Sequence record: PQ671644.1
Source: Escherichia phage DCP80
Strand: one strand, 5' to 3'
Length of the DNA: 64,000 nucleotides
Part shown: one piece after another, positions 1 through 30,710 of the stretch
How the letters are laid out: every line of letters starts with the position of its first letter
Position numbering within the stretch: the first letter of the stretch is position 1
Made by a program: the position numbers and the translations under genes
Notes under the pieces: generated by a model
The model's database searches: none
Told to the model about the DNA's origin: nothing
What the model saw: only the letters and a program-made list of their open reading frames with translations

Positions 1-111
1 TGTTCATAATTTTCTCTTTGTGTTTGGTTGATATGATAATGATACACCCTTTTGATGAGGTTGTAAACCCCTTATTGCAAATACATCTGGCATTGAAACA
101 AATAAATGCCA
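1..111. repeat. Exact direct repeat of 30600-30710 (terminal overlap of block 1)
   Basis: Bases 1-111 match 30600-30710, which are followed directly by an N-run. Confidence 0.8.
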
Positions 112-198
112 AATGACAATTGGTAAAACACCAGATGATGAACTGCAACAAATGGTATCTGATTACAAGTGCTTGATTTATAACAAACAGGAAACACC

Positions 199-232
199 AG
201 GTACATCTGGCATTGAAACAAATAAATGCCAG
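199..232. repeat. Perfect hairpin, 12-bp stem ACATCTGGCATT/AATGCCAGATGT with 10-nt loop; partial copy at 84-112
   Basis: Read directly from sequence; not followed by a T-run. Confidence 0.7.
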
Positions 233-715
233 ATGTATGCCAAATGTAATTTCTGCGGACTGTTGATAGTAATTCTTGTTTAGAAAAAACCCATGCAGAT
301 TAATAGTTTAGAGAGCAAAAACAAGCCTTTCAAAAACAGTCACTCGGCTGCAAAACCCTTACTTAATAAGTCAACACCTGGTTCCGCCTTCGGCGTCACT
401 AATACTGCCACTCAATAAAAATCATAAGCGCAGCGACTAAGACAGGGCGTAGCCCGTGCCGAAGGCCTATTGCATGTACTAAGAACAATCAAAACAATAC
501 TGATTAATAATTGTAATGAGCCTTCGGCCACTCACTTCGTTCGTGATTATGATTTGATTAATTGATTACTAGATACAACTTGTATTGATAACAAATTGCT
601 TGTAGAATTGATTCTAAGAAGGTTTTAGATGAGACTAGTAGATTTTACTAGCATTAGAAGATTAGAAGCCCTACGGGCTCCGCAGGAGCTATATGATACT
701 AGTAAGAATCATCAA

Positions 716-1010
716 TACAATTATCATTCGCTTCGCTCATGAGTTTCACATTTTATCTTCTGTGATTGATTGTTCTTAGTAGTAATGAATCTTGTTAGAA
801 CCATTATAACATGTAAATCTTAAAGCAAATAACAAACGCTTTAAATCTTAGTAGTATTAATGAGAACAATTATCATTCGCTTCGCTCATGAGTTTTACAT
901 TTCTTTTTTGTTGATTTGTTAATGATGATTCTTAGTAACCTTGTAGAACCATTATAACATGTAATTTTTGAAGCAATAAAGATTGGATTGTTCTTAGTAG
1001 TATCAATTAG
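716..1010. repeat. Two diverged tandem copies of a ~150-bp unit (about 716-865 and 871-1010)
   Basis: Both copies share AATTATCATTCGCTTCGCTCATGAGTTT and GAACCATTATAACATGTAA blocks. Confidence 0.65.
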
Positions 1011-1259
1011 CACCTGCGGTGCGCCTTCGGCATAGAATTTTTAAAGTCAATTTTATTAGAAGTTTTTACAAGCTATTGATTTGATTAGTATTAATTAATC
1101 ATCTTGTGTTGAAATTGCTGTTGTAAGTTATTGATTTGATTGATGAATTTAAAAACTGATAAAAATATATCAAAAAGGTAAGACGTGTGTCTTAGTGTAC
1201 CAAAATGTGAAGGCCCGAAGGGACTGAACTGTCATCATGTTGTTGAAATTTGATGCTGT

Positions 1260-1267
1260 TATAAATA
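1260..1267 (+). promoter_or_regulatory. T4-type late promoter TATAAATA
   Basis: GTTATAAATAAATAAAAAGAGG then ATG at 1287. Confidence 0.6.
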
Positions 1268-1286
1268 AATAAAAAGAGGAAACACA

Positions 1287-1469
1287 ATGGATATCAAAAA
1301 ACTTTCTGAAGTTGCATTAGGTAAATGGAATCACCCAGCACCGCGGGTGTCAAAGTACGAAACGGATTTGCTGATAAATTCTGTGATGGATTATCTGTCG
1401 TACAGAGGTATCAAGCATGAAGAAATTCATGTTCAACGTTTGAAGAAATTCTTTGAAGGTAAAAAATGA
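1287..1469 (+). CDS. Hypothetical protein, first gene of late packaging operon
   Basis: 60-aa ORF with SD AGAGGA, late promoter upstream, stop overlaps next start (ATGA). Confidence 0.4.
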   Translation: MDIKKLSEVALGKWNHPAPRVSKYETDLLINSVMDYLSYRGIKHEEIHVQRLKKFFEGKK

Positions 1470-1744
1470 AATTTTATATCTACGATTACAAAAACCAATT
1501 AAGAACCAACCAGATTGTTCGTACTGGTGATTTGAACCATCAGAACCCTAACGTTTATTCAATCAAGATATACGGTACGAAAACACAACTTGAACAAAAT
1601 CCGGACCAGCTAATCAAAGCTGCTCTGCGTCGTATCAGCGAACAATTCGTAGATACAACTTACATCATTCCTGAGGTTGAAATCCAGATAACTGGTGGAT
1701 TGAAATCTTATGCTGAAATTTTTGTGAGGACTTATGAACATTGA
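1466..1744 (+). CDS. Hypothetical protein upstream of terminase
   Basis: 92-aa ORF translationally coupled to flanking genes. Confidence 0.4.
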   Translation: MKFYIYDYKNQLRTNQIVRTGDLNHQNPNVYSIKIYGTKTQLEQNPDQLIKAALRRISEQFVDTTYIIPEVEIQITGGLKSYAEIFVRTYEH

Positions 1745-3716
1745 AGAAAATTTGAGTGTTGAATTCCCTGAAGAAGTTGAACAAGAACAATTCAACCCTG
1801 TAGTTGAACGTATGAAAATTAAAAACATAATCCAGAGAGTATCAAAGTATATCAAAGCTCCTGAAGTGTGTAAGCCATCAGAATGGGTTGAGCGTAATTT
1901 GTATTTCCCTGATGGTCCGATGGCTAACCAACCGATGAAGCTTGATAACTTCCAGAAGGGAATGATTGATTCCATCAACGAAGGCAAGGTTAAAATTATT
2001 TTCATGACCTCCGCACAGATAGGAAAGACAACTGTTCTTAATGGTATGTTGTTCTGGAAATCTGCAATCGAAGGTGGAAACGTTGGTATCGCACAGGCAA
2101 CAGGCAAGGAAGTGTCTAACTGGTTGAACAGTAAGATAAGACCAATGATTGAAGTCTCCCCTGTTATGAAAGACCTGGTTGCGTCAAAAGCTGACCGTGA
2201 TAAATCAAACAACGAATCACGTATCGACCTTATGAACGGTGGTACATGGTTCATGATGTCATTAGGTTCCCCTACGCACCTGCGTGGTAAGACATTACCA
2301 ATGATTCTGATGGACGAAGTTGAAGGCGCAGAAGAATCTGAAGAAGGTTCTCCTATTAACCTGGCTGCCAAACGTGCAACGACTTTCCAGGACGAAGCGA
2401 GATTGATTATTTGCTCAACGCCAAATACGAAGTACGGTCCTATCAATAAAGAATTCGAAGCTTCTGATAAACGATACTTCATGGTTGATTGCCCCCATTG
2501 TGGTCATAATCACAGGATTACGTTTAAAGAGTGTATTAAATTCAATATGATACGTGAACAAGGTAAAGAGATTCCTGATGTTGATTCAGCTGTTCAAATC
2601 TGTCCTTCATGTGAACAGACCATAACAGATATCCAACGTACACGTATGATTCATAACGGTAAATGGGTAGCAACTAATCCAAACTCAAGCTCCATTGGAT
2701 TCCATATCTCTGCTCTTTATTCTCCGCGAAACTCCGTAAAAGGAATCGTGGAAGAGTATAAACAAGCGAGAGCATCGTTTGATGTTAAAAGTTTTTACAA
2801 CACAGTTCTGGGTGAACCATGGTCTGACGGAAACGAAAACATTGAGCTGCATGTTATTGATTCATTAAGAGAACCTATTGGATTGGAAAACATACCTGAT
2901 GATGTGTTGTTCTTAACAGCGGGCGTTGACCAACAGAAAGACCGTTTAGAAATTACAATCTTCGGTCACACAAAACATAAGCTGTACGTATTATCACACA
3001 AATCCATCCACGGACAGAACCTTGAATTGCATAACGACCCGGCATACAAAGGACTATATAATTACATAAGATTACCGTTCACAACTTGTACAGGTCGTAA
3101 GTTGACATTAGCACGAGTTAACATGGACTCCGGTAACGGTCGAGCAACGAAGGTAATTTATTCTTTTGCGCAGAAATGGAACAATATAAAGCCTATCAAA
3201 GGTGCATCAAAAGTTGAAGCTCCGTTTATTCCACCAAAATCTTCAACATCAGGTGGTTATGAATTATGGATGATTGGTGTTAACGAAGGCAAAAACAAAG
3301 TTCGTGAAATTCTTGCATCAAACATAAATGAGGCTGATACTCCTGAACTGGAATTGTCATTGTCTGATGATTTACCTGATGATTATGCTGAACAGTTGTT
3401 ATCAGAAGAAGTTGTCAAATCTGGTACAGCCAGACGCTGGGTAATCAGAAAAGGTGGTGGCCGAAATGAGTGCCTTGATACGTTTGTTTACGGATTAGCT
3501 GCTAGATTTCAAGTACTTAATACAAGTAATTGGGGATTCTGGGAAAAACTGAAAGACAAGAATGAAAAAACTGAGCAAATATCTCAAGAAGAAATTGATG
3601 AATCGGTAGAAACAGGTGTTGTTAACTATGTTGATATTAAACCTGAGAAACCAAAAGTTCAAAGACCACAACGTCCGCAAAGACCAAGGCCAACAACACA
3701 AAGAAGGAGATTCTAA
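1734..3716 (+). CDS. Terminase large subunit, lambda gpA-like
   Basis: 660 aa; CPHCGH...CPSC zinc motif, TAGVDQQKDRLE nuclease region and C-terminal FVYGLAA recalled from lambda gpA. Confidence 0.8.
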   Translation: MNIEENLSVEFPEEVEQEQFNPVVERMKIKNIIQRVSKYIKAPEVCKPSEWVERNLYFPDGPMANQPMKLDNFQKGMIDSINEGKVKIIFMTSAQIGKTTVLNGMLFWKSAIEGGNVGIAQATGKEVSNWLNSKIRPMIEVSPVMKDLVASKADRDKSNNESRIDLMNGGTWFMMSLGSPTHLRGKTLPMILMDEVEGAEESEEGSPINLAAKRATTFQDEARLIICSTPNTKYGPINKEFEASDKRYFMVDCPHCGHNHRITFKECIKFNMIREQGKEIPDVDSAVQICPSCEQTITDIQRTRMIHNGKWVATNPNSSSIGFHISALYSPRNSVKGIVEEYKQARASFDVKSFYNTVLGEPWSDGNENIELHVIDSLREPIGLENIPDDVLFLTAGVDQQKDRLEITIFGHTKHKLYVLSHKSIHGQNLELHNDPAYKGLYNYIRLPFTTCTGRKLTLARVNMDSGNGRATKVIYSFAQKWNNIKPIKGASKVEAPFIPPKSSTSGGYELWMIGVNEGKNKVREILASNINEADTPELELSLSDDLPDDYAEQLLSEEVVKSGTARRWVIRKGGGRNECLDTFVYGLAARFQVLNTSNWGFWEKLKDKNEKTEQISQEEIDESVETGVVNYVDIKPEKPKVQRPQRPQRPRPTTQRRRF

Positions 3717-4201
3717 TGGCTGAAATTACAAATCCCGATGTTACCTTATACATCGGTTCTGAACTAACTGTTACTATCAAGGGCTCCCATGGGGCCTTTG
3801 GACGTAATGACGGTGAAACATATGGTTTAGAAAACGGTATAAATAAAATCAATACAGACAATCTGACACCAGGTGTTTACACGTTAGTTGATTATGCTGA
3901 TACAATTGAATTCACACGTTATGCTGTGAAATCTCCGTTCGGTAAACAATCTCAACTTGAACAAATTAAAGAAATGATTCGCGCAATCAGAGCTTGTTTG
4001 TTAGCACGTGTGAACGGTGATGATGCATATCTTCAAAGCATGGCTTCAGATGGTTATACATTTGCTTATGCTTCTGTCATGGAGCTTGAAGAATTGTTAT
4101 CTGCAAACGAACGCAGATTAGCAAGAGCCAAACAAGCAGATGACATTAAGAAAGGTAAATCACCTATGAGAACAATTAAAGCGAGGTTCCGTCATGCTTA
4201 A
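3716..4201 (+). CDS. Head-module protein of unknown function (at lambda W position)
   Basis: 161-aa ORF between terminase and portal, overlapping both. Confidence 0.35.
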   Translation: MAEITNPDVTLYIGSELTVTIKGSHGAFGRNDGETYGLENGINKINTDNLTPGVYTLVDYADTIEFTRYAVKSPFGKQSQLEQIKEMIRAIRACLLARVNGDDAYLQSMASDGYTFAYASVMELEELLSANERRLARAKQADDIKKGKSPMRTIKARFRHA

Positions 4202-5735
4202 TCCATTTAAAGTCTTCAAAAGAAATGGTATAAATAAAGCTATTAAAAAGAAACAACGTGATGAACAAAAATTACGAATCATCAACGATTCACCACGAAG
4301 TCAAATTCGTGCTCTGGCTGTACAGTCTTCACGTTTAACAGAAACATTTGAACAAGATATGATTCGCGGTTCTATTAACCCTGCGATTCGTCTTGGAAAT
4401 CAGGCTTTAATGGACCAGGCCCAAACAATGGCTGTACAATCTGTTTACGGTAAAAAAGCTGTTCAATACAGTATCGACCAGGTTGTTGGTGCAGAGGGAA
4501 TTCTGCCTATGCCGATTGTTATGAAAAATAAAGAACTTGATGAAGCACTGAACGATGAAATCAGTTATGAATTTGATAAGTGGGCACGTAAAGCTTCTAA
4601 ATTTTCAACCAACGGACAAATGAACTTCCGTCAATTCCAACAGCAAATGGAAGCATCAAGATTTATTTTTGGTGAAGCTTTTGCGATTATCGAAGAAGAT
4701 GATTATGGAATTCGTGTTGAGGTAATTTCTCCGCAACGTTGTCGAATGAATTATTCCGAAAAGACCAAAGAAGGTAACTATATCATCGATTCAATCGAGT
4801 ATACCCCTAGTGGTCGCCCTGTAGCTTATTATTTTGAAATTCTTGACGTAATGGCAAACGATTCCATCACTGGTAATAAATTCCGTGTTGATGCTGATGA
4901 TTGTTTCCACTATTTCAAACCAAACGTTCCAGGACAACGACGTGGGATTTCTGAATTCGCACCTGTTATTAAAGAGTTGAACCAGTTGGATGAATTTACG
5001 TTTTCTACAATCGTTCAAAAACGTATGGCTTCTAACAGCATGGGATTCATTACAACAGATGCAAACGGTCACGATTCAATTGATATTGAAATGGACGATG
5101 AAGCTGATGATGTTTATCAAGAGCCGGATATTATCCAAGAATTTGAAGCTGGTACGATGCACCAGTTAGCCGCTGGTCAAGACATTAAACAAATTACAGC
5201 AACACAAGGAGCTGATGATTATGTCGCGTTTAACTCCGCTATGGAATCAAAAATCGCAATGGGTTTTGGATTCTTTAAACAGGGTTTTCTTGGTGATACC
5301 AGTTCAATTAACTATTCCTCTGCTCGATTTGGTGATGCACAGCAACGTAATATGATTAAATCAACACAATCAACTTTGCGTGAATCTGTTCTGGAACCAT
5401 TATATGAGCGTTGGCTTGAGTGGATGTATATGCAAGGGAAATTGGTCAAATCAGACCGAATGGTTGAGTTTATTGCAGTTAATACAGATTGGATTTATCC
5501 TAAATCTGAGAGCATCGACCCAATGAAAGACCTTGATATCGAGATTAAAGCCGTTGAAGCTGGTATGCGCACCCGTCGTGATGCAATTACAAGACTTGGT
5601 GGTGACGATGTTGATGCAACTTTTGCTGGTATCGAAGCTGAACAAGGTTTACGCGTTCCGAAGAATGAACAACAGTTGGCTGCAGTATCTGCTCCTGCAG
5701 AAATCGCCGCCGGGGTCTCCGAAGAAGGTGTATAA
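4194..5735 (+). CDS. Portal protein, lambda gpB-like
   Basis: 513 aa, position directly after terminase; size and sequence character of lambda-family portals. Confidence 0.75.
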   Translation: MLNPFKVFKRNGINKAIKKKQRDEQKLRIINDSPRSQIRALAVQSSRLTETFEQDMIRGSINPAIRLGNQALMDQAQTMAVQSVYGKKAVQYSIDQVVGAEGILPMPIVMKNKELDEALNDEISYEFDKWARKASKFSTNGQMNFRQFQQQMEASRFIFGEAFAIIEEDDYGIRVEVISPQRCRMNYSEKTKEGNYIIDSIEYTPSGRPVAYYFEILDVMANDSITGNKFRVDADDCFHYFKPNVPGQRRGISEFAPVIKELNQLDEFTFSTIVQKRMASNSMGFITTDANGHDSIDIEMDDEADDVYQEPDIIQEFEAGTMHQLAAGQDIKQITATQGADDYVAFNSAMESKIAMGFGFFKQGFLGDTSSINYSSARFGDAQQRNMIKSTQSTLRESVLEPLYERWLEWMYMQGKLVKSDRMVEFIAVNTDWIYPKSESIDPMKDLDIEIKAVEAGMRTRRDAITRLGGDDVDATFAGIEAEQGLRVPKNEQQLAAVSAPAEIAAGVSEEGV

Positions 5736-5738
5736 ATA
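5731..5738 (+). promoter_or_regulatory. T4-type late promoter TATAAATA
   Basis: GTGTATAAATAAAGG about 50 nt upstream of ATG 5789. Confidence 0.6.
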
Positions 5739-5788
5739 AAGGTATAACGGGACTTCTAACGAGGTCCCAAAAAATAAGGACAAAAACA

Positions 5789-7789
5789 ATGTCGCAAACA
5801 ATCAGATTAAAACGTGAAATTTCTGTAGAGAAAATTCAGGCTGATGAAGACGGGATTTATGAAATTGCATTTTCTTCTGAAACCCCTGTTGAACGTCAGA
5901 TTGATACTCGTCACGGTCCACAAATTGTGAATGAAATTCTCATGCACACAGGTCCGGAAAACGCAGATTTAGAGCGTATAAATAATAATGCAAGCTTGCT
6001 GTTTAACCACAATTTCGACAACCATTTAGGTGTTGTTGTTCCTGGTTCAGTACGTATTGACAATGATAAAGTTGGCCGCGCTAAAGTAAAATTTTCAAGC
6101 GTTGGACAATTAGCACAAGAGATTAAAGCCAAGGTCGATGAAGGCACAATCTCAAAAATTTCGTTTGGATACGACATTAACGAGTATGATGTTGTTGGTG
6201 ATGACATGCTTGTTTCTCGTTGGGCACCATATGAAATTTCTTTCGTCACTGTCCCGGCAGATGATAAGGTTGGCCTCGGCCGCAGTATAAATAATATTGT
6301 AATTAACACAAATAAGGAAAAACGAATGAAACGTTACGAAGATTTTGAAATTGAAGACATCGTTGAACTGTCACGTGAAGAACTCGCTGATATGACAATC
6401 GCTGAAATCGAAGCCCTGGCTGAAGATGTACGTGCTAAGCGTGAAGAATTGCTTGACGAAGTTGAAGACGCTGAGAAAGAAGAAAAAGTTACCGATGAAG
6501 AAGATGCTGACTACGACAAAGCTGAAGGCAAAGATGCAGAAGCTAAAGTTGAAGATAAAAAAGCCGAAGGCATCGAAGACGAACTCACTGCTGAAGAGCG
6601 TGAAGAAGAAATCATCGAAATTGAAGAAATCGCTGAACGATACAAAATCGGTCGCGGAGAAGTTCGCAAAGCCATCGCAAGTGGCATGACTGCTCGTCAG
6701 TTCAAACGTTCTATTAAACCATCTAAAAACAAAAAGGAAATTCGTACTATGACTACCTCTATCGCTAAAGATACCCAGAAAAACCTCGAAGCTCGTTTTG
6801 ACCTGGCTGAAGTAACCCGTTCACTTGCTGCTGGTAAAGACATTAAAGGCGCTGCTGCTGAGTACTCTCAGGAAATGACTCGTAAACGTCAGAACGCAGG
6901 TCGTGACATTAACGGTCGTGCATATATCCCGGTAAGTGCTCTGCAAGGTCAGCGCGCAGTAAACACCGTTCCTACCGTTGCAAATATCGAACAGCACTAC
7001 GTTGATTACAACAGCTTTGTTGAATTGCTGCTCAAACCAACTGTAATTGGTAAACTGGGTGTTAACTTCCAGACCGGTCTGACCACTCCTTACGATGTAC
7101 CGAAACAAACTTCCAGCTCTGTTGATGCGTTTGGTTTCGTTGCTGAAAACGGTGACTCTCCTGAAGGCGAAAGCGGATTTGACATCATCAAATTCATGCC
7201 GCACACCTTTACTGGTGGTAACCCGATTTCTCGTCAGGCTCTTAACACCATGCCTAACCTGGCAAGCTTCATCTCTAACCACATCGTAGAACAATCTCGT
7301 TCTAAGATTCAAGGTCTGATGTTTGGTTCTGCTACTGACCCGGTTGCTTCTGGTGCTAACGCTCCGCAGAGCATCATCGCTCAGTTGGTTGCTAAGCAGA
7401 TTGGTATGACCTACAAAGAATTCGTTACCCTGGCTGCTGAAGCTGAAGGTAAAGGCGTTGCAATGGACCGCTTCAAGTATCTGATTGCTTCTGCACTTGG
7501 TGGTGAACTGAAATCCACTCTGCGTGATGCTGCTGTTGCTGGTTACATCATCGATGATGAAAACCGTATCGGTGGTCATGATGTAGTTACCTCTGGTCTG
7601 GTTAAACCTGGTCAGATTCTGTCTGGTGACTTCTCTGCAATCACTGTTGCTGAATGGGAAGGTCTGGCACTGGATATGGACGACACGACCTATCGTAACA
7701 AAGGCGCTATCGTTCCGCGTGTTTGGTGTGATATCGATTGGAAAGTTACTGCTGACGACCGTCTGTTCTTGTTCGAAAAGACAGCATAA
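5789..7789 (+). CDS. Fused prohead protease (HK97/S78-like) - acidic scaffold - major capsid protein
   Basis: N-terminus has LLFNHNFDNHLG and ISFVTVPADDKV motifs like HK97 gp4; central acidic coiled coil; C-terminal ~330 aa capsid-like. Confidence 0.7.
   Translation: MSQTIRLKREISVEKIQADEDGIYEIAFSSETPVERQIDTRHGPQIVNEILMHTGPENADLERINNNASLLFNHNFDNHLGVVVPGSVRIDNDKVGRAKVKFSSVGQLAQEIKAKVDEGTISKISFGYDINEYDVVGDDMLVSRWAPYEISFVTVPADDKVGLGRSINNIVINTNKEKRMKRYEDFEIEDIVELSREELADMTIAEIEALAEDVRAKREELLDEVEDAEKEEKVTDEEDADYDKAEGKDAEAKVEDKKAEGIEDELTAEEREEEIIEIEEIAERYKIGRGEVRKAIASGMTARQFKRSIKPSKNKKEIRTMTTSIAKDTQKNLEARFDLAEVTRSLAAGKDIKGAAAEYSQEMTRKRQNAGRDINGRAYIPVSALQGQRAVNTVPTVANIEQHYVDYNSFVELLLKPTVIGKLGVNFQTGLTTPYDVPKQTSSSVDAFGFVAENGDSPEGESGFDIIKFMPHTFTGGNPISRQALNTMPNLASFISNHIVEQSRSKIQGLMFGSATDPVASGANAPQSIIAQLVAKQIGMTYKEFVTLAAEAEGKGVAMDRFKYLIASALGGELKSTLRDAAVAGYIIDDENRIGGHDVVTSGLVKPGQILSGDFSAITVAEWEGLALDMDDTTYRNKGAIVPRVWCDIDWKVTADDRLFLFEKTA
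6286..6293 (+). promoter_or_regulatory. Internal TATAAATA late promoter inside the protease-capsid ORF
   Basis: TATAAATA then AAGGAAAAACGA-ATG, in frame, at about 6326. Confidence 0.5.
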
Positions 7790-7904
7790 ACCTAATGGAG
7801 AGAGCAATCTCTCCTATGAGTTTGGGCGCAGAAGCTCTTGATGCCGCTCCGGTTAAAAAAAGCAAGAGCGCGTCGGGTTAAATCTACTGACTAACAAACT
7901 ATAA

Positions 7905-7929
7905 GGGAGCCTTCGGGTTCCCTTTTTTG
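7905..7929 (+). terminator. Rho-independent terminator, UUCG tetraloop
   Basis: GGGAGCCTTCGGGTTCCC followed by TTTTTT. Confidence 0.7.
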
Positions 7930-7930
7930 T

Positions 7931-7938
7931 TATAAATA
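7931..7938 (+). promoter_or_regulatory. T4-type late promoter TATAAATA
   Basis: GTTATAAATAAGGTAAAGGAGAAATT-ATG (7955). Confidence 0.65.
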
Positions 7939-7954
7939 AGGTAAAGGAGAAATT

Positions 7955-22437: not shown

Positions 22438-22442
22438 TAAAA

Positions 22443-22458
22443 GGGGACTTCGGTCCCC
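22443..22458 (+). terminator. Terminator-type hairpin
   Basis: GGGGACTTCGGTCCCC. Confidence 0.55.
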
Positions 22459-22471
22459 TTAAGGATAGGAA

Positions 22472-22933: not shown

Positions 22934-22958
22934 GTTCGATGGATTCTAAGAGGTTATT

Positions 22959-23426
22959 ATGAAAGCAATAGAGTACAAACATATGTTATACGAAAGACAA
23001 CATGGAATTTGTCTGCTATGTAAACTTCCGCTTGAAGATGTTAAAAGTTCCCATCTAGACCACGACCACGCTTTAACAGGTCCTAATGCTGGATTCTGCC
23101 GAGGACTTCTATGTCCTAGTTGTAACGTCTTGGAAGGAACTTTGCTGCATAAATTCAACAGAAGTGGATTAAAAAGTAAAACAACCTTTACAGCTTATCT
23201 TAATAACCTGCTATCTTATTATGCAAATCCACTGCATGAAAAGATACACCCTAATTTTATTAGAGATAAGGTGAAGGCTGTTTCACGGATGAGCAATCAA
23301 AGTATCATAGCTGAAATTGAAAAACTGACCTTTAACCTCCCAGCTGATAAGTCAAAGAAAGGACTTGTCAGTTTCTATCGTAAGGCTCTTAAGAAGTCCC
23401 TGGAGGACGTATGTCTGCAAAGTTAA
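22959..23426 (+). CDS. 49: Endonuclease VII-like Holliday junction resolvase
   Basis: CLLC...HLDHDH...GLLCPSCN...HKFNRSGLK...IHPNF closely follows T4 gp49 as recalled. Confidence 0.8.
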   Translation: MKAIEYKHMLYERQHGICLLCKLPLEDVKSSHLDHDHALTGPNAGFCRGLLCPSCNVLEGTLLHKFNRSGLKSKTTFTAYLNNLLSYYANPLHEKIHPNFIRDKVKAVSRMSNQSIIAEIEKLTFNLPADKSKKGLVSFYRKALKKSLEDVCLQS

Positions 23427-23583
23427 AGGTTAATAAAGATTTACTAAAAAAAGTGCTCATGGCGGCCCTGATAAGCTCCTTGGTATGGAATCATATAGTA
23501 TCACCTATAATTCTAATAACCACAGGTGTAAGTATCACGATTCCGATGCATGAAGTACTTCAACCGTTAATGCTATTACTATA
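23410..23583 (+). CDS. Small membrane protein, possible holin
   Basis: 57-aa ORF below track cutoff, SD GGAGGA, one hydrophobic helix; overlaps end of gene 49. Confidence 0.3.
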
Positions 23584-23592
23584 AGGAATGAT

Positions 23593-24144
23593 ATGAGAGA
23601 CCCTAATAAAGGTAAAGCTCGGAAGGTCAAGGAAGACCTTCAAAAGTGGGCGATTAAGGAAGATGACGTTTTCAGTAAGAAATTAACAAAGGCTTCCAAG
23701 CTGGCATCAGTTCAGTTACAGAGATATATCAACGGTAACATCAAAGGAGGTGCAACACCTTTTACACAGAAAGCAGTGGGATTCCAATTTAGATATGATA
23801 AGTTTGGTTCCTGGAACAGAATCTATATAAGAGATGCACAAGCGGCTTATCTTGGTGACCTGATTGATGATGACAAACGCTTTAAGAAGTTTGTACCAAT
23901 CGCTGGCAGGAACACAAACAAGTTCGGTAACATAATTGGTTTAAGGAATTTCAGAAACCTTATTCCCGTTAAACAGATGCATAACGGACGAATGAGAACA
24001 ATTCTCATCAAGCCATCAGCTAAAGGTATAAAAAGATTCGTTGCTGTACAGAAGGAAATTTCCCCACGGAAAACATTAGGTTCATGGAAAGAAATGGAAA
24101 AGAGAATGATAAATAACATTAACAGAGTCATTCACTCCAAATAA
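23593..24144 (+). CDS. Hypothetical basic protein
   Basis: 183-aa ORF, Lys/Arg-rich. Confidence 0.4.
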   Translation: MRDPNKGKARKVKEDLQKWAIKEDDVFSKKLTKASKLASVQLQRYINGNIKGGATPFTQKAVGFQFRYDKFGSWNRIYIRDAQAAYLGDLIDDDKRFKKFVPIAGRNTNKFGNIIGLRNFRNLIPVKQMHNGRMRTILIKPSAKGIKRFVAVQKEISPRKTLGSWKEMEKRMINNINRVIHSK

Positions 24145-24157
24145 ACTAAGGATTAAC

Positions 24158-24457
24158 ATGTACAAGTACAGATATTATAACGAAGAATCATTACTAACGT
24201 TAAAGATAAACGGTGTGAATCCACCAGGTTGTTCATTACCAGAACCAGCTAAAAGTTTAAAGAAATTCCAGAAGGTAAATGATAACGATTACTTTGCTGT
24301 GTCAACTTTGTTCAAGACACCAAAGGTTTCTTATAAGAAAGGGGAAGTTGTTAAACTAGAAGGATTCCCGTTAAGGAGAGAGGCTGTGTGTATCGGTGAT
24401 TTGTTACACACAGAGAAGGGGTACAGAATTAAAAGTTATATCTTCCAATTCTGTTAA
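24158..24457 (+). CDS. Hypothetical protein
   Basis: 99-aa ORF. Confidence 0.35.
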   Translation: MYKYRYYNEESLLTLKINGVNPPGCSLPEPAKSLKKFQKVNDNDYFAVSTLFKTPKVSYKKGEVVKLEGFPLRREAVCIGDLLHTEKGYRIKSYIFQFC

Positions 24458-24464
24458 TTTTAGT

Positions 24465-24776
24465 TTAGTTGAGTTTTTTACAATTAGTTATCAATAAACC
24501 GTTGACATAGAATTCACGTTCCCCACCACGAATCCATGTACCATACATGATTCCATCTCGTTCACGTTTCAGAGCAGGGATTTTCTTCCCGTCGATTTCA
24601 ACAGAACTAGAGCGCAAAGGTGGTGAACGGAATTCCTCTGAACTGAAAGATTCGATAACTGTAACGAACTCCACTTTAATCTCAGGACTGTAACACTGGA
24701 ACTTTTGTACTTCCATTGCATAACTTGATGCAGAGATAAGAAGCAATGATGCGATGATTGTTTTTAAAGTTTTCAT
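24465..24776 (-). CDS. Secreted protein with signal peptide, opposite strand to late operon
   Basis: MKTLKTIIASLLLISASSYA signal-like N-terminus; SD GGAGA before ATG. Confidence 0.5.
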   Translation of the reverse strand: MKTLKTIIASLLLISASSYAMEVQKFQCYSPEIKVEFVTVIESFSSEEFRSPPLRSSSVEIDGKKIPALKRERDGIMYGTWIRGGEREFYVNGLLITNCKKLN

Positions 24777-24868
24777 ATAGTCTCCAAAGTAATAATCTTA
24801 TTTAGTGTTTCAATAGTATAAGATAAGTATAACACATAAATTCTAAAGCGTAAACCTAAGGAGGTTTT

Positions 24869-25333
24869 ATGTCAGAAGCTTTTAACATGCTGATGAAAGA
24901 TGAAGGCATCGAGTATCATCTTTATAAATGCACGCAAGGATACTGGACAATCGGGATTGGTCATATGATTTCCCGTGATAAACAAACAGCTGAACGATTC
25001 CTTAATGAGAAATTTGGGAAGTGTGTAATAAGTAAGGAGCAGGCTATCCAGTTGTTCAAGCAAGATTATAATCATGCAGTATTAGGTGCACAGAGTATCG
25101 TAAGATTAGACACCTACCGTGAATTAGCATTGTCTAATATGGTTTTCCAGATGGGACTTGGTGGTGTACTGAAGTTCAAGAAAATGATAGCTGCACTGAA
25201 GATACAAGACTGGAACGAAGCTTATAAGCAGGCTTTAGATTCTACATGGTATAAACAAACACCTAATCGTGCCAAACGTGTGGCCGAGGTACTAAGAGAT
25301 GGGAAACAAGCATATGTCAAACATTACTCCTGA
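24869..25333 (+). CDS. e: Lysozyme, T4 e-type (GH24)
   Basis: EG..Y.C..GYWTIGIGH, NMVFQMG and WYKQTPNRAKRV match T4 lysozyme motifs. Confidence 0.85.
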   Translation: MSEAFNMLMKDEGIEYHLYKCTQGYWTIGIGHMISRDKQTAERFLNEKFGKCVISKEQAIQLFKQDYNHAVLGAQSIVRLDTYRELALSNMVFQMGLGGVLKFKKMIAALKIQDWNEAYKQALDSTWYKQTPNRAKRVAEVLRDGKQAYVKHYS

Positions 25334-25526
25334 AATGATTGCTGAACTATACGTTGAGAATCATAACTTAAAGCGTCAATTCAAAGCTGCTAACGATTTC
25401 GTCGGGCAGGTAGCCATGGCTCTCCAGATGGATTCTGAAGACTCTATCGTAACTTATGAAGCATTGTCTAACAAGTTAGCTTCCGCGCTCGCCGGGGCCT
25501 CCCAGGGCGTCCAGGAAAAGCAATAG
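25299..25526 (+). CDS. Hypothetical protein
   Basis: 75-aa ORF overlapping lysozyme end; weak. Confidence 0.25.
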   Translation: MGNKHMSNITPEMIAELYVENHNLKRQFKAANDFVGQVAMALQMDSEDSIVTYEALSNKLASALAGASQGVQEKQ

Positions 25527-25534
25527 TTACTTTC

Positions 25535-25554
25535 CGGGGGCCCCCTCCCCGGGA
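25535..25554. promoter_or_regulatory. GC-rich near-dyad element CCGGGGGCCCCCTCCCCGGG, candidate cos nicking site
   Basis: Isolated GC-rich imperfect twofold symmetry in AT-rich region ~200 bp upstream of Nu1-like gene. Confidence 0.4.
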
Positions 25555-25759
25555 TGTTACGCCCACCCATTCTTCTGTTTACCAGAAATTTTTTTGGGAT
25601 AGCTAACACAACTTTATAATTATAAAATATTTTTTAAAATTAAAAATAGTTTTGAAAATAAATTTTGATTTTAAAATTAATTTTACAATTCATGAACTTA
25701 TAAGTTCTTAATTTCTAAAAGATTTTCAAGAGCTTTTCCAAAACTGATGAGGAATTAAA

Positions 25760-26251
25760 ATGTCAACCAAAGACCCGATTTATCTTAACCAAAAACAAAT
25801 CTCCGAATCCTACGGAGTTACGCGCCAGACGATTGCAGAGTGGCAGAAGCGTGAAAATCCAATTCCGTGGATTGCTGGACGGGGATATCCGATGCCTGAT
25901 GCCGGAGTTTGGATTGCAGAAAATTTTATAAAAACTTTAAGACAGAACAACGAAGCACAGGATTTTAATTATCACAAGACAAGGAAGATGGCAGCAGAAG
26001 CGGACATTGCTGAAAGGGAAAACATGCTCGAGGCGCAATCCGTTATCAGAACAGATTTCGTAGAAGAGGAGTTAAGGAATTTTGTTACAAGAGTTAAGGA
26101 AACCCTCCGCGTCATTCCATTGAAGTATGCAGAAGATATTGCTATAAGAGCAACAAGCACATCAGAAGTTAAGAAGGCATTAAGGGAAGCGATTGATAAA
26201 TCCCTGAACGAGATTGACCTGTTGATGTTGTTTGAAGAGCATGAAGAATAA
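25760..26251 (+). CDS. Terminase small subunit, lambda Nu1-like winged HTH
   Basis: KQISESYGVTRQTIAEWQKRE parallels Nu1 KQLADIFGASIRTIQNWQEQG; downstream coiled region matches Nu1 layout. Confidence 0.55.
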   Translation: MSTKDPIYLNQKQISESYGVTRQTIAEWQKRENPIPWIAGRGYPMPDAGVWIAENFIKTLRQNNEAQDFNYHKTRKMAAEADIAERENMLEAQSVIRTDFVEEELRNFVTRVKETLRVIPLKYAEDIAIRATSTSEVKKALREAIDKSLNEIDLLMLFEEHEE

Positions 26252-26281
26252 TCCATTCCCCCAATAAAAAAGGGACCCGAA

Positions 26282-26298
26282 GGTCCCTTACGTCATTC
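26282..26298. terminator. Bidirectional terminator hairpin between convergent genes
   Basis: AAAAAA-GGGACCCGAAGGTCCC. Confidence 0.65.
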
Positions 26299-26532
26299 CC
26301 ACTTAATCGTTGCTACTCGCTCATACACGAGACGTAAATCAATCTTTCCTTTTACGGTATATGTTCTTTGAACTTCCCCTTGTGCTTCCACTGTGAGGCT
26401 ATCAATTAATTCATCGTTTTGATACAATCGATATAGGTTTTTCTGACGGTTTGAAATTGTTAAAGTACGTTGAACTTCTTCTTTAGTATCTTCCAATTTA
26501 TGGAGAGCTTTTAGACTAGTTGATTCGTACAT
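26293..26532 (-). CDS. Hypothetical protein
   Basis: 79-aa ORF. Confidence 0.4.
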   Translation of the reverse strand: MYESTSLKALHKLEDTKEEVQRTLTISNRQKNLYRLYQNDELIDSLTVEAQGEVQRTYTVKGKIDLRLVYERVATIKWE

Positions 26533-26563
26533 AGTTTTCCTTTTTAAAGGGGACCGAAGTCCC

Positions 26564-26890
26564 TTATGCGTATAAGTGTTTTTCTTTCTTACGAAGACAG
26601 TTTTCAGAAGCTGTCAGGAGCTGCAAGTTACTTGGAGCGTTGTTCTTGCGGTTAAAATCGATATGGTCAATGTGCATACCCTCAGGAACTTCAGAATCGT
26701 TATCAAGCATCCACACGATTCGGTGAGCATACTCGTTATTATGAACCGGGTGGAAAACATGGATATAACCAGAAGGTAATTCGTAACCAGCTTCTTTGCC
26801 AGCGTGCTTACCAGTGGTGTAAATCAGTTTGTCATCAACGATTGCATAGTGAGCTTTAACGATGTCGAGAGTAATTTTAGTACGTGCCAT
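26564..26890 (-). CDS. HNH endonuclease
   Basis: HIDHIDFNRKNNAPSNLQLLTASEN HNH motif. Confidence 0.7.
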   Translation of the reverse strand: MARTKITLDIVKAHYAIVDDKLIYTTGKHAGKEAGYELPSGYIHVFHPVHNNEYAHRIVWMLDNDSEVPEGMHIDHIDFNRKNNAPSNLQLLTASENCLRKKEKHLYA

Positions 26891-26908
26891 TTGATATACC
26901 TTTTAAAA

Positions 26909-26957
26909 ATGAAGCACCGGAATTGATGCTTCGCGTTTTCATACTTTTATTTATAAC
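26909..26957 (-). promoter_or_regulatory. Intergenic cassette: TATAAATA, then hairpin with loop TCAATTCCGG
   Basis: Minus-strand reading TATAAATAAAAGTATGAAAACGC-GAAGCA-TCAATTCCGG-TGCTTC-ATTTTT. Confidence 0.5.
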
Positions 26958-26969
26958 AGCTTTTCGGGC

Positions 26970-27152
26970 TTATTCAGAAGTCAGAATAAATTTTTGATAC
27001 TGTTTACCAGTTATCTTGTATCTGATGAAGTTGAACAAATCGAACAAATATCCAAGAGGAATCAGAGCAATCAGAAGTGGTGCCATGATGAACATCAGGA
27101 TTGCTTGGATAACAAACAGAATTGTTTCACCCAGAAATTTTAAAATAAACAT
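26970..27152 (-). CDS. Small membrane protein
   Basis: 60 aa, two hydrophobic segments. Confidence 0.4.
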   Translation of the reverse strand: MFILKFLGETILFVIQAILMFIMAPLLIALIPLGYLFDLFNFIRYKITGKQYQKFILTSE

Positions 27153-27185
27153 AGTTCTCCCGTTGGGGCCGAAGCCCCAGATAAG

Positions 27186-27401
27186 TTAGCGAATTGATTT
27201 TTGTTCTTTAGCGCGATTCTTAATACCAAGTCCTTGCATCGTGGCTTCGATAACCTCGATTGCTTTAACACGTTTTTCATACTCTGCCAGAGTGATTTGT
27301 TTTTTGGCGAATTGTACATAAAGGGCAGACATAGCTTCGTAACTGTTCATAGGATTTCTCTTTAAAGGGAGACACCGGAATTGATGTCTCGTTGTTTTCA
27401 T
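27186..27401 (-). CDS. Hypothetical small protein (true start probably the internal ATG near 27347)
   Basis: Track start lies inside the TATAAATA motif; internal ATG has SD AAAGAG. Confidence 0.35.
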   Translation of the reverse strand: MKTTRHQFRCLPLKRNPMNSYEAMSALYVQFAKKQITLAEYEKRVKAIEVIEATMQGLGIKNRAKEQKSIR

Positions 27402-27418
27402 ACATTTATTTATAACGG
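27369..27418 (-). promoter_or_regulatory. Intergenic cassette: TATAAATA, then hairpin with same loop and covarying stem
   Basis: Stem GAGACA/TGTCTC versus GAAGCA/TGCTTC in the 26909 copy; loop TCAATTCCGG identical. Confidence 0.5.
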
Positions 27419-27422
27419 TCTT

Positions 27423-27713
27423 TTAACGCTTTTTAAAACCACCGAAGAAGGTGCCAGATAATGATTGAGCGATTTTAGAAGCTTCATAGTTGTTTGATTC
27501 AACTTCACCATACTTCCAACCTTTACCAAGGAGTTTCAACCATTTCAATCTAGCGATTGTCACATCATGACCTGCGCAAAGGAGTTCAAATTCTTCCAGT
27601 TCATCATTAAGTAGATAAGCAAGTTTTTCTTTATCCACAGCGTATGTCCAATTGGTACCTTCGAATTCGAAGAAAACTGAATCACCGTGGGTTTCTACAT
27701 TTTTAATCTTCAT
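27423..27713 (-). CDS. Hypothetical protein
   Basis: 96-aa ORF. Confidence 0.4.
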   Translation of the reverse strand: MKIKNVETHGDSVFFEFEGTNWTYAVDKEKLAYLLNDELEEFELLCAGHDVTIARLKWLKLLGKGWKYGEVESNNYEASKIAQSLSGTFFGGFKKR

Positions 27714-27904
27714 TAGATTTCCTTTACAATAAATTTATAAGTTACTTGGGACTCTTTAAAGACAGCTTCCGTTGCCCATTCTTCAGGTTTTTTCGAAAGC
27801 TCTGTGTGATAAAGCATTGCAGCTTCACCCTCTTGTGCTTCCAAAGCTTCTATGTAGCTTCGGCCTTCTTTAAGTTTAATAACACCGCAATCTATGATTC
27901 TCAT
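27713..27904 (-). CDS. Hypothetical protein
   Basis: 63-aa ORF. Confidence 0.35.
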   Translation of the reverse strand: MRIIDCGVIKLKEGRSYIEALEAQEGEAAMLYHTELSKKPEEWATEAVFKESQVTYKFIVKEI

Positions 27905-28215
27905 TTCTTGTCCAGTAGTTGTTGGTAAAATTCGATATGAGCATAAACATCTTGAATCCCGTGTAGGTAATCATCAAAGGTGATGTCCAGGTCTTCAAAG
28001 AAGTTATGATAAATTTCTTGTAGTTTGGTATAACCGTTTTCGTTAGTCATAAGTACCTCGTTGTTTTCATAATTTTATTTATACTGATTAATACTGGTTT
28101 AAATGGCGCCACAACGTGGTTCTGGATATACTATGTTTCTTCAGAACAGATTTCTTATCTTTACGACGAGCATTTTTATACTCGTCTGCAATTTGATTTA
28201 ACTTCTCGTTGGTCA

Positions 28216-28947
28216 TTAAAATTTTACGCATAACAGGTTGTCCAGTTGGTCTTCATGGGTTTCGATTAAGATTTCAGATTCCAGAGCTTCAGCAGCCTGA
28301 ATCATTGTGGCAGTATCACCACCAGCTTTAGCAACGTGAATCACAGTATCGAATTTACGTTTGTAAAGATTTTTCAGTTTAACTTCTTTAGTTTTCTGTG
28401 CAAAGTGTTTTTCAGATTTACGTTTAACTTCAACCAGTTCTTCTTTAACAACTTCAACTTCTTCTTCAGCTTCCTGGATAGCAACGTTTGCTTTCTTCAG
28501 AGCAGCATGTTGTGCACGAATGATTTCCATCATTTCTTCCACAGATAATTCCTCAAGATTGTTGATGTCAAATTTGACAACTTCTTTCTTTTCAACATGG
28601 TGATTAGAATTAACGGTATCGATTTCGTAAATCCAAGTTTTGTCACCGCGACGAGTCATTTCCAGGTTCTGCTGGATATAACCTTTACCTACTTTGTGAA
28701 TCACACGAGCTGAATTCCAATCAGTATGAACTACACAGATTGAATTTTCAAATTCTGCAACAAAGTAATCTCCCTCACCAAAATCAACTGCTTTAGCTTT
28801 AACTGCACGATACAGAGAACGATTAGCTGAACCAATTTCTTGTAACAAAGATTTAACAGAACTAGCATGAATTACTTTGGTTGCATTTTGTACAGACATG
28901 TTGCTTTCAGCTTGGTTTTCGCATTTTTTAAAAAGTTTGATAATCAT
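28216..28947 (-). CDS. Hypothetical protein with C-terminal charged coiled coil
   Basis: 243-aa ORF, no family recognised. Confidence 0.45.
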   Translation of the reverse strand: MIIKLFKKCENQAESNMSVQNATKVIHASSVKSLLQEIGSANRSLYRAVKAKAVDFGEGDYFVAEFENSICVVHTDWNSARVIHKVGKGYIQQNLEMTRRGDKTWIYEIDTVNSNHHVEKKEVVKFDINNLEELSVEEMMEIIRAQHAALKKANVAIQEAEEEVEVVKEELVEVKRKSEKHFAQKTKEVKLKNLYKRKFDTVIHVAKAGGDTATMIQAAEALESEILIETHEDQLDNLLCVKF

Positions 28948-29772
28948 GTGTTTTCCTTTATTTGTTAATCGTGTTATTATTTAGAATTAAAAAGTGATGT
29001 GTAATTCTTTGTTGATTTCAAAGATGACAGTTGCTAATGTCAAGTTGTGTTCTTTACACCAATCAGCACGTTTAGCCGGTGGCAATTTGTTTAACGCACA
29101 GAAGATTTTCATTAATTTAATCTGATAAGAATTCATGGTGACCTCAAGTGTTTCGATGTTTGTTAGGGTTTAAAAAAGAGGTTGTTCACCTCGTCGCTTT
29201 CATACATTTATTTATACACTAATTTTCGGCTCATTAGACAATCAGAAAAGTTCAATCCGGATTCAATCGCGTCAGGAGAATTTCCATGATAATATTTATC
29301 TCTTTATACTCACAAAAAACATTGAAACACATTTTGCAGTTTTTGGACTTTTAATCAAAAAAGGCTGTTTTTGATATTTCCGGGGGGTGCCTATGCCTTC
29401 CGGAGCACTTTTTGAGGCAAAAGTTATAAGAAACCTATTTTAATATATCAAAAGGTAATAACAAAGGCCTTTTTTCCCTCAAAAAACGTCAGAAAAAGGC
29501 TGTTTTTTCAGCTTATTTTGAGCCTTTTTTGAAGGTTCATTTTTGGGACTTTTAATCAAAAAACAAGGGAATTTTTCGGGAGCAGTACAGGGGTACTATC
29601 AGATGATAGGAGCTATCATTTAGAAGGGAGAATTGTGATTACTTATGACCGTTATACGATTGTATCGCGATTATTTGGTCAAATAACGACGAAATAATCA
29701 AAATAAATCATCGAAACACTTAGAAAACAGGCTGTTTTAGGTATAAAAATGGCCCCTTTCGGAGCCTAAAAT

Positions 29773-29979
29773 TTATTTCATACGCAGGTATTTTTCATAA
29801 CTAACTTTTGACAGAGCCAAATAGTAAGCTGCATCTTTTTCTCCCGATAATTTACCTTCAGCAACTGTTGCACAATCTTCTTTGAAAGTTGCTTCCCAGG
29901 AAAATCCATCAAGCCAATCGGAAAATTGTTGTTCGTTCATATTAACCTCTGTAATGTCTGTTGTAATGGTGTACTGCAA
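29773..29979 (-). CDS. Hypothetical protein
   Basis: 68-aa ORF. Confidence 0.35.
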   Translation of the reverse strand: MQYTITTDITEVNMNEQQFSDWLDGFSWEATFKEDCATVAEGKLSGEKDAAYYLALSKVSYEKYLRMK

Positions 29980-30288
29980 TTTCTGTGCAAAGGTCTTCGA
30001 AGACCAATGGGATTATGTTTTCTCGGTAGACAACATAACTGTACTGTCTGTAGGTGTAGACCTCTTTATATTTCTCGAAGAACATAAACAGGTCTTGATT
30101 AGCTGTAACTTCTAACGGGGTGATTTTCCCGGCTGCATCAACTATCATACTTCCTCCTTATTAACTTAATAATAGGCTCCCGCTCAGAAACCTATGATAA
30201 GGTACCACACATGAATTTAATCAAAGGTCTTCACATCACTAAAGACCTTTTGTTAAACACATGAATCAGGTCATCACTCCTGATACTT

Positions 30289-30609
30289 TTATTTATAACG
30301 GGATTTATTCATCCATTCAAATATGCCAGGGTTCCATTCGATGTTACCCATCGCTACATAATGATTGATTGCTTCTCGCAGAGACACCTGGAAGAATTCG
30401 GATTCGTCAAGTAATGAAACAATGATTTCCCCTTGTGCCTGTAAATCATCAACTGTCATCATGGAAAGAATTTCATATGCTGATTGAATTTCGTCTTCTG
30501 TGAAATCTGTGTCGAACCAATCATTAAGGTTATCATCAGATTTGTAATTATTGTAATAAGCCATACCTTCGATAACCAGATTGATAATTTCATTTACGTT
30601 GTTCATAAT
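30289..30609 (-). CDS. Hypothetical acidic protein
   Basis: ~106 aa from ATG near 30609; track ORF 30289..30768 reads through the N-run. Confidence 0.4.
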   Translation of the reverse strand: MMNNVNEIINLVIEGMAYYNNYKSDDNLNDWFDTDFTEDEIQSAYEILSMMTVDDLQAQGEIIVSLLDESEFFQVSLREAINHYVAMGNIEWNPGIFEWMNKSRYK

Positions 30610-30710
30610 TTTCTCTTTGTGTTTGGTTGATATGATAATGATACACCCTTTTGATGAGGTTGTAAACCCCTTATTGCAAATACATCTGGCATTGAAACAA
30701 ATAAATGCCA

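Follow-up and report, generated by a model that had tools for sequence, protein, structure and literature searches.

The record PQ671644.1 (Escherichia phage DCP80) raises the question of how a phage-like genome can be multiplied when it carries a virion, packaging and lysis gene set and no detectable gene for replication or late transcription. In the analyzed stretch of 64,000 nucleotides (the window), N runs of 10, 47, 10, 18 and 54 bases divide the sequence into six blocks, and the genome in question, block 1, covers positions 1 to 30,710. An earlier interpretation made from the letters alone (the sequence-only reading) had described it as a possible circular or terminally redundant element that would depend on a T4-like helper. 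The results described below indicate that block 1 is probably a non-integrating satellite virus of T4-like (Straboviridae) phages that has its own particle, packaging and lysis functions.

The two ends of block 1 are identical at 111 of 111 positions, with the match ending at the run of 10 N at 30711-30720, and this overlap gives a unit length of 30,599 bp. An exact match of 111 bases cannot have arisen by chance. The overlap is the sole long repeat within block 1, and among the ends of the six blocks those of block 1 form the only matching pair. The join 1|30599 is crossed without a break, at 98.8-99.3% identity, by Logan contigs of five other runs (SRR30884460, SRR10874826, DRR848646, SRR27732222, and SRR10828603). 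They extend from window position 746 backwards over the join and end at 25554-29657, so that ~740 bp are covered to one side of it and up to ~5 kb to the opposite side. The contigs are short because the break at 746, where all five stop, falls in a 68-nt internal repeat (D4). Genes are continuous across the join, as the promoter and the start codon of the first minus-strand gene span it, and the 105-amino acid (aa) protein encoded by this gene is identical in sequence on contigs of five other runs.

A second lineage was rebuilt from two loci of ENA ERZ14207148 k141_48483 (31,592 bp), whose exact 141-bp terminal repeat yields a circle of 31.45 kb. This repeat is located in the tail-tube gene and therefore at another breakpoint than in block 1. 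The two lineages have the same gene order and are 66% identical in the capsid and 62% in the tail tip. Both overlaps have an odd length (111 bp, and 141 bp in the contig with k141 in its name), which suggests that they stem from assembler k-mers and are not physical terminal repeats, and the length of 111 would fit the k-mer overlap of a de Bruijn assembly. The element is discrete and self-closing, with ~30-31.5 kb in the two lineages, and is either a circle or a genome of unit length that is permuted or concatemeric. The identical ends next to an N run and the discreteness of the element, of which the sequence-only reading had stated the former and held the latter to be possible, were confirmed in this way.

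All blocks were mapped onto the complete genome of the T4-like phage P896. Block 2 is 95-97% identical to T4-like phages of E. coli and corresponds to P896 76630-87009, block 3 corresponds to 88872-80802 on the opposite strand, and blocks 4, 5, and 6 map to other parts of the P896 genome, with block 4 covering gene 45. Block 1 had no megablast match in 50,697 phage records, and all stretches that it has in common with the other blocks are shorter than 50 nt. Without any DNA match and with three distant protein matches only, it was rejected as a part of a T4-like genome.

Blocks 2 and 3 overlap over ~6 kb at 94-97% identity, so that at least two T4-like genotypes are present in the record. Due to this redundancy, the block order and the N gaps, including the adjacency of block 1 to the motA block, are uninformative on linkage, and the N-gap adjacency was rejected as linkage evidence because the two blocks cover the same T4-like region in opposite orientation. 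This region (window 30721-49790) is the rIIA-rIIB-denB region of the T4-like genome. What the record does provide is co-binning: block 1 is accompanied by T4-like contigs encoding MotA and gp45, of which one starts with motA (both Pfam domains above the cut-offs).

The plus-strand gene block (1287 to 26251) is predicted to encode a full siphovirus set of the lambda/HK97 type for virion, packaging and lysis (Table 1). As in lambda/HK97-type siphoviruses, there is a GpA-type large terminase subunit, for which the GpA_ATPase and GpA_nuclease domains were found in a 98% relative, and a weakly Nu1-like small subunit, whose match to PF07471 (E 4e-4) is below the cut-off. The Phage_portal_2 portal, the S78-HK97 capsid fusion, the tape measure, the distal tail protein and the J-like tip agree with this type as well, and connector-sized genes are also present. 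Unlike in these phages, a replication, recombination, immunity and integration module is missing. The virion proteins share at most about 30% identity with any isolated phage. Also encoded on the plus strand are a T4 e-type lysozyme and a recombination endonuclease VII comprising the catalytic domain and the T4 dimerisation domain (phrog_423, E 6e-38), the latter enzyme being 43% identical to T4-like gp49. Of the gene content claimed earlier, the virion, packaging and lysis genes proved to be complete, whereas the cos-like site was not located. The second fibre protein (745 aa) had no phage match; its first 51 residues resemble the N-terminus of T4 gp37 (43% identity). This resemblance was considered as a sign of attachment to the helper and set aside, as gp36/gp37/gp38-type side fibres are ordinary in the family.

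About 13 genes encoding proteins of 47-243 aa are located on the minus strand from 30606 to 26293. All listed genes were searched against PHROGs, and 20 orphans were searched against Pfam at E≤1. Apart from an HNH endonuclease, the minus-strand orphans, including the acidic 105-aa protein encoded by the first gene, have no PHROG match and no Pfam match even at this threshold. In both databases neither a polymerase, helicase, primase, initiator or integrase nor a sigma factor was detected for block 1, and MotA, AsiA, gp33, and gp45 were not detected among its proteins. Searches by phmmer (--max) revealed nothing (E>0.2), whether the queries were gp55, gp33, gp45, and RpbA from P896 or gp55 and gp45 from phage CBA120, and BLASTP against the whole P896 proteome found only endonuclease VII (43%), the lysozyme (43%) and the 51 residues of the gp37 N-terminus. 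The largest orphan, the 243-aa protein, has seven homologues among 1.84 billion representative proteins. It is modelled as a beta-rich N-terminal domain with a coiled-coil hairpin, for which the fold search returned generic coiled coils only, and the model of the 105-aa protein was unusable (predicted local distance difference test score, pLDDT, 49.5). No open reading frame (ORF) of block 1 resembles a replication or transcription protein. The lack of polymerase, helicase, primase and late sigma factor noted in the sequence-only reading holds in all of these searches, as an absence of detectable genes, since orphans remain.

The T4 late promoter is an 8-bp TATAAATA at -10, and its -35 region is not conserved (PMC2988020; PMC3184105). 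In block 1 this octamer occurs 16 times compared to 2.5 occurrences expected from dinucleotide shuffles, a 6.5-fold enrichment. All 16 copies are sense-oriented, with 11 on the plus strand within the block of plus-strand genes, five on the minus strand within that of minus-strand genes and none antisense, and 10 of them are located at most 141 nt upstream of a gene start. Four plus-strand copies lie directly 3' of terminators consisting of a GC hairpin and a T run, which leaves no room for a -35 element. The hexamer TAAATA by itself is below the shuffle mean (23 vs. 29.6), and its depletion is clearer in the T4-like genome (100 vs. 184.8 expected). The sites of block 1 agree with T4-type late promoters in the -10 motif, the missing -35 element, the gene orientation and the enrichment, and the second lineage has nine sense-oriented copies. 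Because these motifs are present while genes for gp55, gp33 and the clamp went undetected, the factors reading them would have to come from elsewhere, and this is the basis of the helper hypothesis.

Some further features were seen at these sites. At four of the five late-type promoters on the minus strand, an AAAGTATGAAAAC-like sequence and then a hairpin come next (26911-26955, 27370-27414, 29178-29216, and 30265-30297), and the copy at 28083 has the AAAGTATGAAAAC-like sequence and no evident hairpin. Two of the hairpins share the loop TCAATTCCGG on compensatory stems (GAAGCA/TGCTTC and GAGACA/TGTCTC), and T runs follow some of them. The hairpins may represent a 5' RNA element or an attenuator. 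On the plus strand, the motifs at 5977 and 6286 lie in the fused protease-capsid gene (5789-7789) and might be the source of internal transcripts from which a scaffold or capsid product is made separately.

Two middle-type promoters of the forms ATTTGCTTTA-12 nt-TGTTATAAT and TATTGCTTCA-12 nt-TGTTATAAT were found on the minus strand of a region without any ORF of at least 50 aa on either strand. For the MotA box, the consensus reads (a/t)(a/t)(a/t)TGCTT(t/c)A at 12 +/- 1 bp from TAtaaT, often with TGn (PMC2988021). Both promoters satisfy this consensus and its spacing, both have the TGn, and by our own estimate about 0.02 perfect sites per genome are expected by chance. The DNA downstream of both is A+T-rich and non-coding, and on their strand no ORF was called before the 105-aa gene ~800 nt further on. 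In the second lineage, TATTTGCTTTAAG-N9-TGTTATAAT is present on the same strand of the corresponding ORF-free region as a counterpart of the promoter at 803-830, in DNA that can otherwise not be aligned. The conservation of a middle-type promoter within diverged non-coding DNA argues for a function.

The T4 origins oriF and oriG consist of a promoter of the middle mode together with an A+T-rich unwinding element, and ~100 bp of this type suffice for plasmid replication in T4-infected cells (PMC3016281). Block 1 has the same promoter type followed by the same kind of DNA, and differs from oriF, oriG and the origin plasmids in that no sequence homology extends beyond the promoter consensus. The ORF-free region is a candidate for an origin that is fired via R-loops. 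It contains the repeats D4, D12, and I2 and has folding z-scores of -5.0 (plus strand) and -6.1 (minus strand). A search of the whole of block 1 against Rfam gave nothing credible (sub-threshold ZNRD1-AS1_2, E 0.14, score 22.7 vs. a gathering threshold of 60).

A T4-early-type sigma-70 promoter is located in the 111-bp overlap ahead of the first minus-strand gene. It is the only well-placed sigma-70-like site of block 1, in which such sites are not enriched (36 vs. 41.1 and 37 vs. 40.8 expected). The promoter is a near-copy of one in the T4-like block 5 (window ~59300-59350, 37 of 46 positions identical), and it also resembles the GTTTAC...TAxxAT...CATCAAC class that has 11 copies on the early strand of P896. 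Just upstream of it, a 30-bp palindromic element is found in two copies, which look like candidate operator sites for a dimeric regulator. The called ORF of 56 aa (113-283) that spans the palindrome region is doubtful.

In addition to these T4-type signals and the T4-type endonuclease VII, the codon usage supports the proposed helper dependence, as far as it can be deduced from sequence. In relative synonymous codon usage, block 1 shows a correlation of r=0.91 with T4-like genes and of r=0.26 with E. coli genes, where the former value partly reflects the common A+T richness.

From these elements the following infection cycle can be proposed. After entry, host RNA polymerase would read the early promoter at the junction, so that the acidic 105-aa protein is made, perhaps along with the small proteins of the two following genes. 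The MotA and AsiA proteins of the helper would then switch on the two MotA-box promoters of the ORF-free region. The middle transcripts could form R-loops in the downstream A+T-rich DNA and prime the helper replisome, as at oriF and oriG. The helper proteins gp55, gp33, and gp45 would drive the 16 TATAAATA promoters, which head almost every operon on both strands. Branched T4-style replication products would be resolved by the endonuclease VII of the element, and its own Nu1/GpA-type terminase would cut the DNA and package it into its own HK97-type heads. With no integrase, the element would persist by co-infection only, and its DNA would presumably carry the helper-type modification. Its relatives in Enterobacteriaceae that have a serine recombinase and a CTAAATA variant of the late motif may represent the integrating form of the same lifestyle.

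Several points weigh against this model. The dependence on a helper is read from motifs and gene content, and the co-occurrence with T4-like phages comes down to this one mixed record. As T4 breaks down cytosine DNA and shuts off transcription from it, the element would need hydroxymethylcytosine DNA. A means of ensuring co-infection is not apparent for a satellite without integrase. The finding of the MotA boxes was post hoc, and the two copies of block 1 represent a single duplication. Of the 16 late-type motifs, six lie inside genes, and a few can also be read as extended -10 elements (TGnTATAAA) that the host polymerase could perhaps use. Finally, the about 13 orphans could hide a novel initiator or a promoter-specificity factor.

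Some of these points would fit an autonomous small virulent siphovirus, in which an orphan protein recruits the host replisome and TATAAATA is read by the sigma-70 polymerase of the host or by an unrecognised factor of its own, so that the T4-like appearance would be due to convergence or ancient shared ancestry. Such a phage would account for the full virion, packaging and lysis set, for the about 13 genes without assigned function and for the few late-type sites with TGn in front, and the co-binning with T4-like contigs may reflect only a similar G + C content. To our knowledge, however, an initiator or a polymerase is the minimum found in every characterised autonomous tailed phage, and none is detectable in block 1, in the second lineage or in the integrated relatives, nor is any ORF of block 1 big enough for a clamp and clamp loader. 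Most TATAAATA sites have neither a -35 element nor TGn, and those placed directly on terminators are among the difficulties as well. Three T4 promoter classes are present together with none of the T4 factors, and they include MotA boxes, which are known to be used only by the MotA/AsiA-modified polymerase. Moreover, no relatives were found among the 50,697 records of isolated phages. We therefore regard autonomy as unlikely, while it is the strongest of the other explanations.

Capsid relatives of block 1 fall into two groups, from which a further explanation arises. Those with 94-98% identity were found only on SRA-derived or metagenome contigs and never in a bacterial genome. Those with 62-66% identity are located either on contigs of 30-41 kb or in the chromosomes of Kluyvera, Klebsiella, Enterobacter, E. 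coli, Citrobacter, and Serratia, and among 5,426 complete E. coli genomes only seven have one. In E. coli PSS-15 (NZ_AP027709; locus positions 3248-37457), a relative of ~34 kb is integrated between ybiT and ldtB. One of its ends has a large serine recombinase, and none of its genes is annotated for replication. Block 1 might be a degenerate or recently escaped derivative of this temperate family that has lost the recombinase and comes to light only in the form of induced or packaged DNA, with host-driven replication from an unrecognised origin as in a prophage. The chromosomal relatives and the PSS-15 element speak for such a descent. Yet prophage properties are confined to the 62-66% relatives, since block 1 has no recombinase ORF and its close lineage has no chromosomal occurrence, and two separate lineages without integrase keep intact genes and the gene order. 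The integrated relatives are themselves devoid of replication genes. Their G + C content (38-40%) and codon usage are unlike those of the hosts, the codon usage being unrelated (r=0.10), and instead of TATAAATA they have CTAAATA after terminators (13 sense and two antisense copies vs. ~6.7 expected on both strands), which is like the late-gene motif of Ackermannviridae and the variant of phage Aeh1. By their missing replication genes, foreign composition and CTAAATA motif they look helper-dependent too, and a temperate derivative that replicates by means of the host is considered quite improbable.

The weakest explanation, a regulatory cassette that falsely joined the ends of a larger and possibly T4-like genome fragment, could draw on the last 30 bases of the overlap (82-111) being found again at 202-231 and on the T4-like contigs adjoining block 1 in the record, but this alternative offered by the sequence-only reading is refuted as far as sequence data go and hardly deserves any weight, as a 30-bp repeat is too short to create a 111-bp overlap, five independent assemblies read through the join, the second lineage is closed at a different point, at the DNA level block 1 resembles neither the T4-like blocks nor a complete T4-like genome, block 2 runs on into T4-like DNA in every reference, and the redundant blocks 2 and 3 exclude an ordered scaffold.

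Returning to the satellite, the CTAAATA motif was followed up in other phages. In Aeromonas phage Aeh1, a late promoter variant has a/gC in place of TA at -13/-12 (PMC2988020). In CBA120 (Ackermannviridae; JN593240 60001-110000), the late genes gp22 and gp18 are preceded by CACTAAATA and orf192 by AACTAAATA; the CTAAATA motifs of these 50 kb, six in number, are all in gene sense. According to a 2011 paper, the late promoter of the family of CBA120 had not been identified, and a CTAAATA late promoter of ViI-like phages was not confirmed in PMC3184105. The family of block 1 seems to have two promoter dialects and both integrating and non-integrating forms, which is to be taken as a lead. Tentatively, block 1 could be an obligate satellite of T-even-type phages that leaves its whole transcription (by mimicking early, middle and late promoters) and its replication (by a MotA-dependent R-loop origin) to the helper and retains an unrelated virion of the lambda/HK97 type. 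It could belong to a wider family in Enterobacteriaceae whose members adapt the promoter dialect to helpers that use gp55, with TATAAATA for T4-like and CTAAATA for Ackermannviridae-like helpers; we hold this to be quite possible rather than probable.

The integrated relatives encode an endonuclease VII and gp36/gp37/gp38-type fibres. They also contain a conserved non-coding region of ~1.2 kb with 72-79% identity between genera, which holds a conserved GTTTATC-N17-TATAAT promoter. No homology was found between this region and the ORF-free region of block 1. The sole match in the comparison of ORF-free regions was 16 nt to the region of Logan contig SRR23924977_4018 (E 0.006), which was judged to be due to chance. 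In IMG/VR and the JGI metagenomes, no close relatives were found with the large terminase and the hairpin motif as queries, and an exact look-up of the large terminase had no success either.

The closest analogues among known satellites are the Streptomyces satellite viruses MulchRoom and MiniFlayer, which have their own encapsidation genes, lack key replication genes, occur in integrating and virulent forms and have a codon usage tuned to the helper (deCarvalho et al. 2023, PMC10690885). All three traits, i.e., a virion without replication genes, two forms and helper-like codons, are paralleled here; by its predicted genes, block 1 likewise has capsid, packaging and tail proteins of its own, while key replication genes went undetected. 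In contrast to block 1, the helpers of the Streptomyces satellites are siphoviruses of Actinomycetota, and homology between the two was neither tested nor seen. Block 1 differs further by its full tail and lysis set, by having no evident neck-attachment adaptation, and by a proposed dependence that would include transcription, with three promoter classes mimicked, and an origin-like module.

The phage-inducible chromosomal island-like element (PLE) of Vibrio cholerae has its own replication initiator and no virion and hijacks the capsids and tails of the lytic myovirus ICP1. Block 1 would resemble the PLE as a parasite of a virulent myovirus that uses the replication machinery of the helper, and the integrated relatives of block 1 would stay in the chromosome until infection in a similar way. 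The arrangement appears to be reversed in block 1, which has its own virion and no detectable replication genes.

Capsid-forming phage-inducible chromosomal islands (cfPICIs) and P4 are helper-dependent elements of Enterobacteriaceae with integrase, primase/replicase and regulators that take their tails from temperate helpers, the cfPICIs making their own capsids and terminase. Block 1, unlike these, has tail and lysis genes. The genes diagnostic of PICI, cfPICI and P4 elements (integrase, primase/replicase and regulators) were not found in it, and it carries a full tail module. Searches of the literature turned up no satellite of T4-like phages or Straboviridae.

The T4-like phages belong to the viruses that are best studied and most abundant, and they are widely used in phage therapy. 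If the satellite reading is correct, block 1 would provide a natural reporter of how sigma is appropriated, how the clamp activates late transcription and how R-loop origins fire, and transcriptional mimicry would be able to replace a whole replication and regulation module. Such a satellite could lower the yield of helpers in therapy cocktails or in the environment, and it would explain low-G + C phage-like islands without replication genes in clinical Enterobacteriaceae. The satellite reading is directly testable, as the helper genetics (motA, asiA, 55, 33, and 45 mutants; origin-plasmid assays) already exist.

Table 1. Features of block 1 with their positions in the window (strand: +, plus; -, minus;., none).
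Feature	Position	Strand	Remark
Circularly closing genome unit	1..30599	.	39-40% G + C
First copy of the 111-bp overlap	1..111	.	carries early promoter and start of first minus-strand gene
Second copy of the 111-bp overlap	30600..30710	.	adjoins N run
Palindromic element, 30 bp	82..111	.	TGGCATT-N10-AATGCCA
Palindromic element, second copy	202..231	.	direct copy, 120 bp apart
T4-early-type sigma-70 promoter	30638..30666 (= 39-67)	-	GTTTACA-17-TATCAT then CATATCAAC
ORF-free, repeat-rich region	284..1286	.	candidate helper-fired origin and/or packaging site
Perfect middle-type promoter	803..830	-	ATTTGCTTTA, 12 nt, TGT-TATAAT; MotA box 821-827, -10 element 803-808
Second perfect middle-type promoter	951..978	-	TATTGCTTCA, 12 nt, TGT-TATAAT; MotA box 969-975, -10 element 951-956
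Late-type motifs TATAAATA (11)	1260..18219	+	starts 1260, 3838, 4229, 5731, 5977, 6286, 7931, 10595, 13165, 13736, 18212
Late-type motifs TATAAATA (5)	26948..30297	-	upper ends 26955, 27414, 28083, 29216, 30297
Large terminase subunit, lambda GpA type	1734..3716	+	phrog_15, E 1.5e-129
Portal protein	4194..5735	+	Phage_portal_2
Fused prohead protease (S78) and HK97-type major capsid protein	5789..7789	+	
Two fibre genes	8760..13136	+	699 and 745 aa
Tail module	13211..22437	+	tube, two chaperone-sized genes, distal tail protein, hub, DUF6950
Tape measure	14463-16877	+	within tail module
Central tail-tip fibre, J-like	18637-22437	+	within tail module
Lysis region	22472..25333	+	spanin-like, small orphans, lysozyme
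Spanin-like protein	22472-22933	+	153 aa
T4-type recombination endonuclease VII	22959..23426	+	PF02945 and PF09124 above cut-offs
T4 e-type lysozyme	24869-25333	+	43% identical to T4-like (P896) lysozyme
Small terminase subunit, weakly Nu1-like	25760..26251	+	phrog_57, E 9e-20
Twelve small genes	26293..30148	-	47-243 aa
HNH endonuclease	26564-26890	-	among the twelve small genes
243-aa protein	28216-28947	-	beta domain and coiled coil
First minus-strand gene	30289..30606	-	acidic 105-aa orphan protein, predicted early

Two further Logan contigs showed features of note. The contig SRR23924977_4018 (23.8 kb, 36% G + C) carries weak T4 baseplate-hub-like genes and Seg-like endonucleases as well as homologues of a gene pair of block 1, which encodes a 49-aa protein and the 243-aa protein. 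In addition, sense-oriented TATAAATA motifs are present on this contig, and its non-coding region holds the same MotA-box promoter (TATTTGCTTTAAGAAAAGTGTGTTATAAT). It could represent either a small helper related to T4 or a second dependent element, of the myovirus type. In the 30,484-bp relative ERR3797165_219, an AAA_15/AAA_21 ATPase gene is found beside an HNH gene in a variable region (1-1753), and this pair looks like a defence system.

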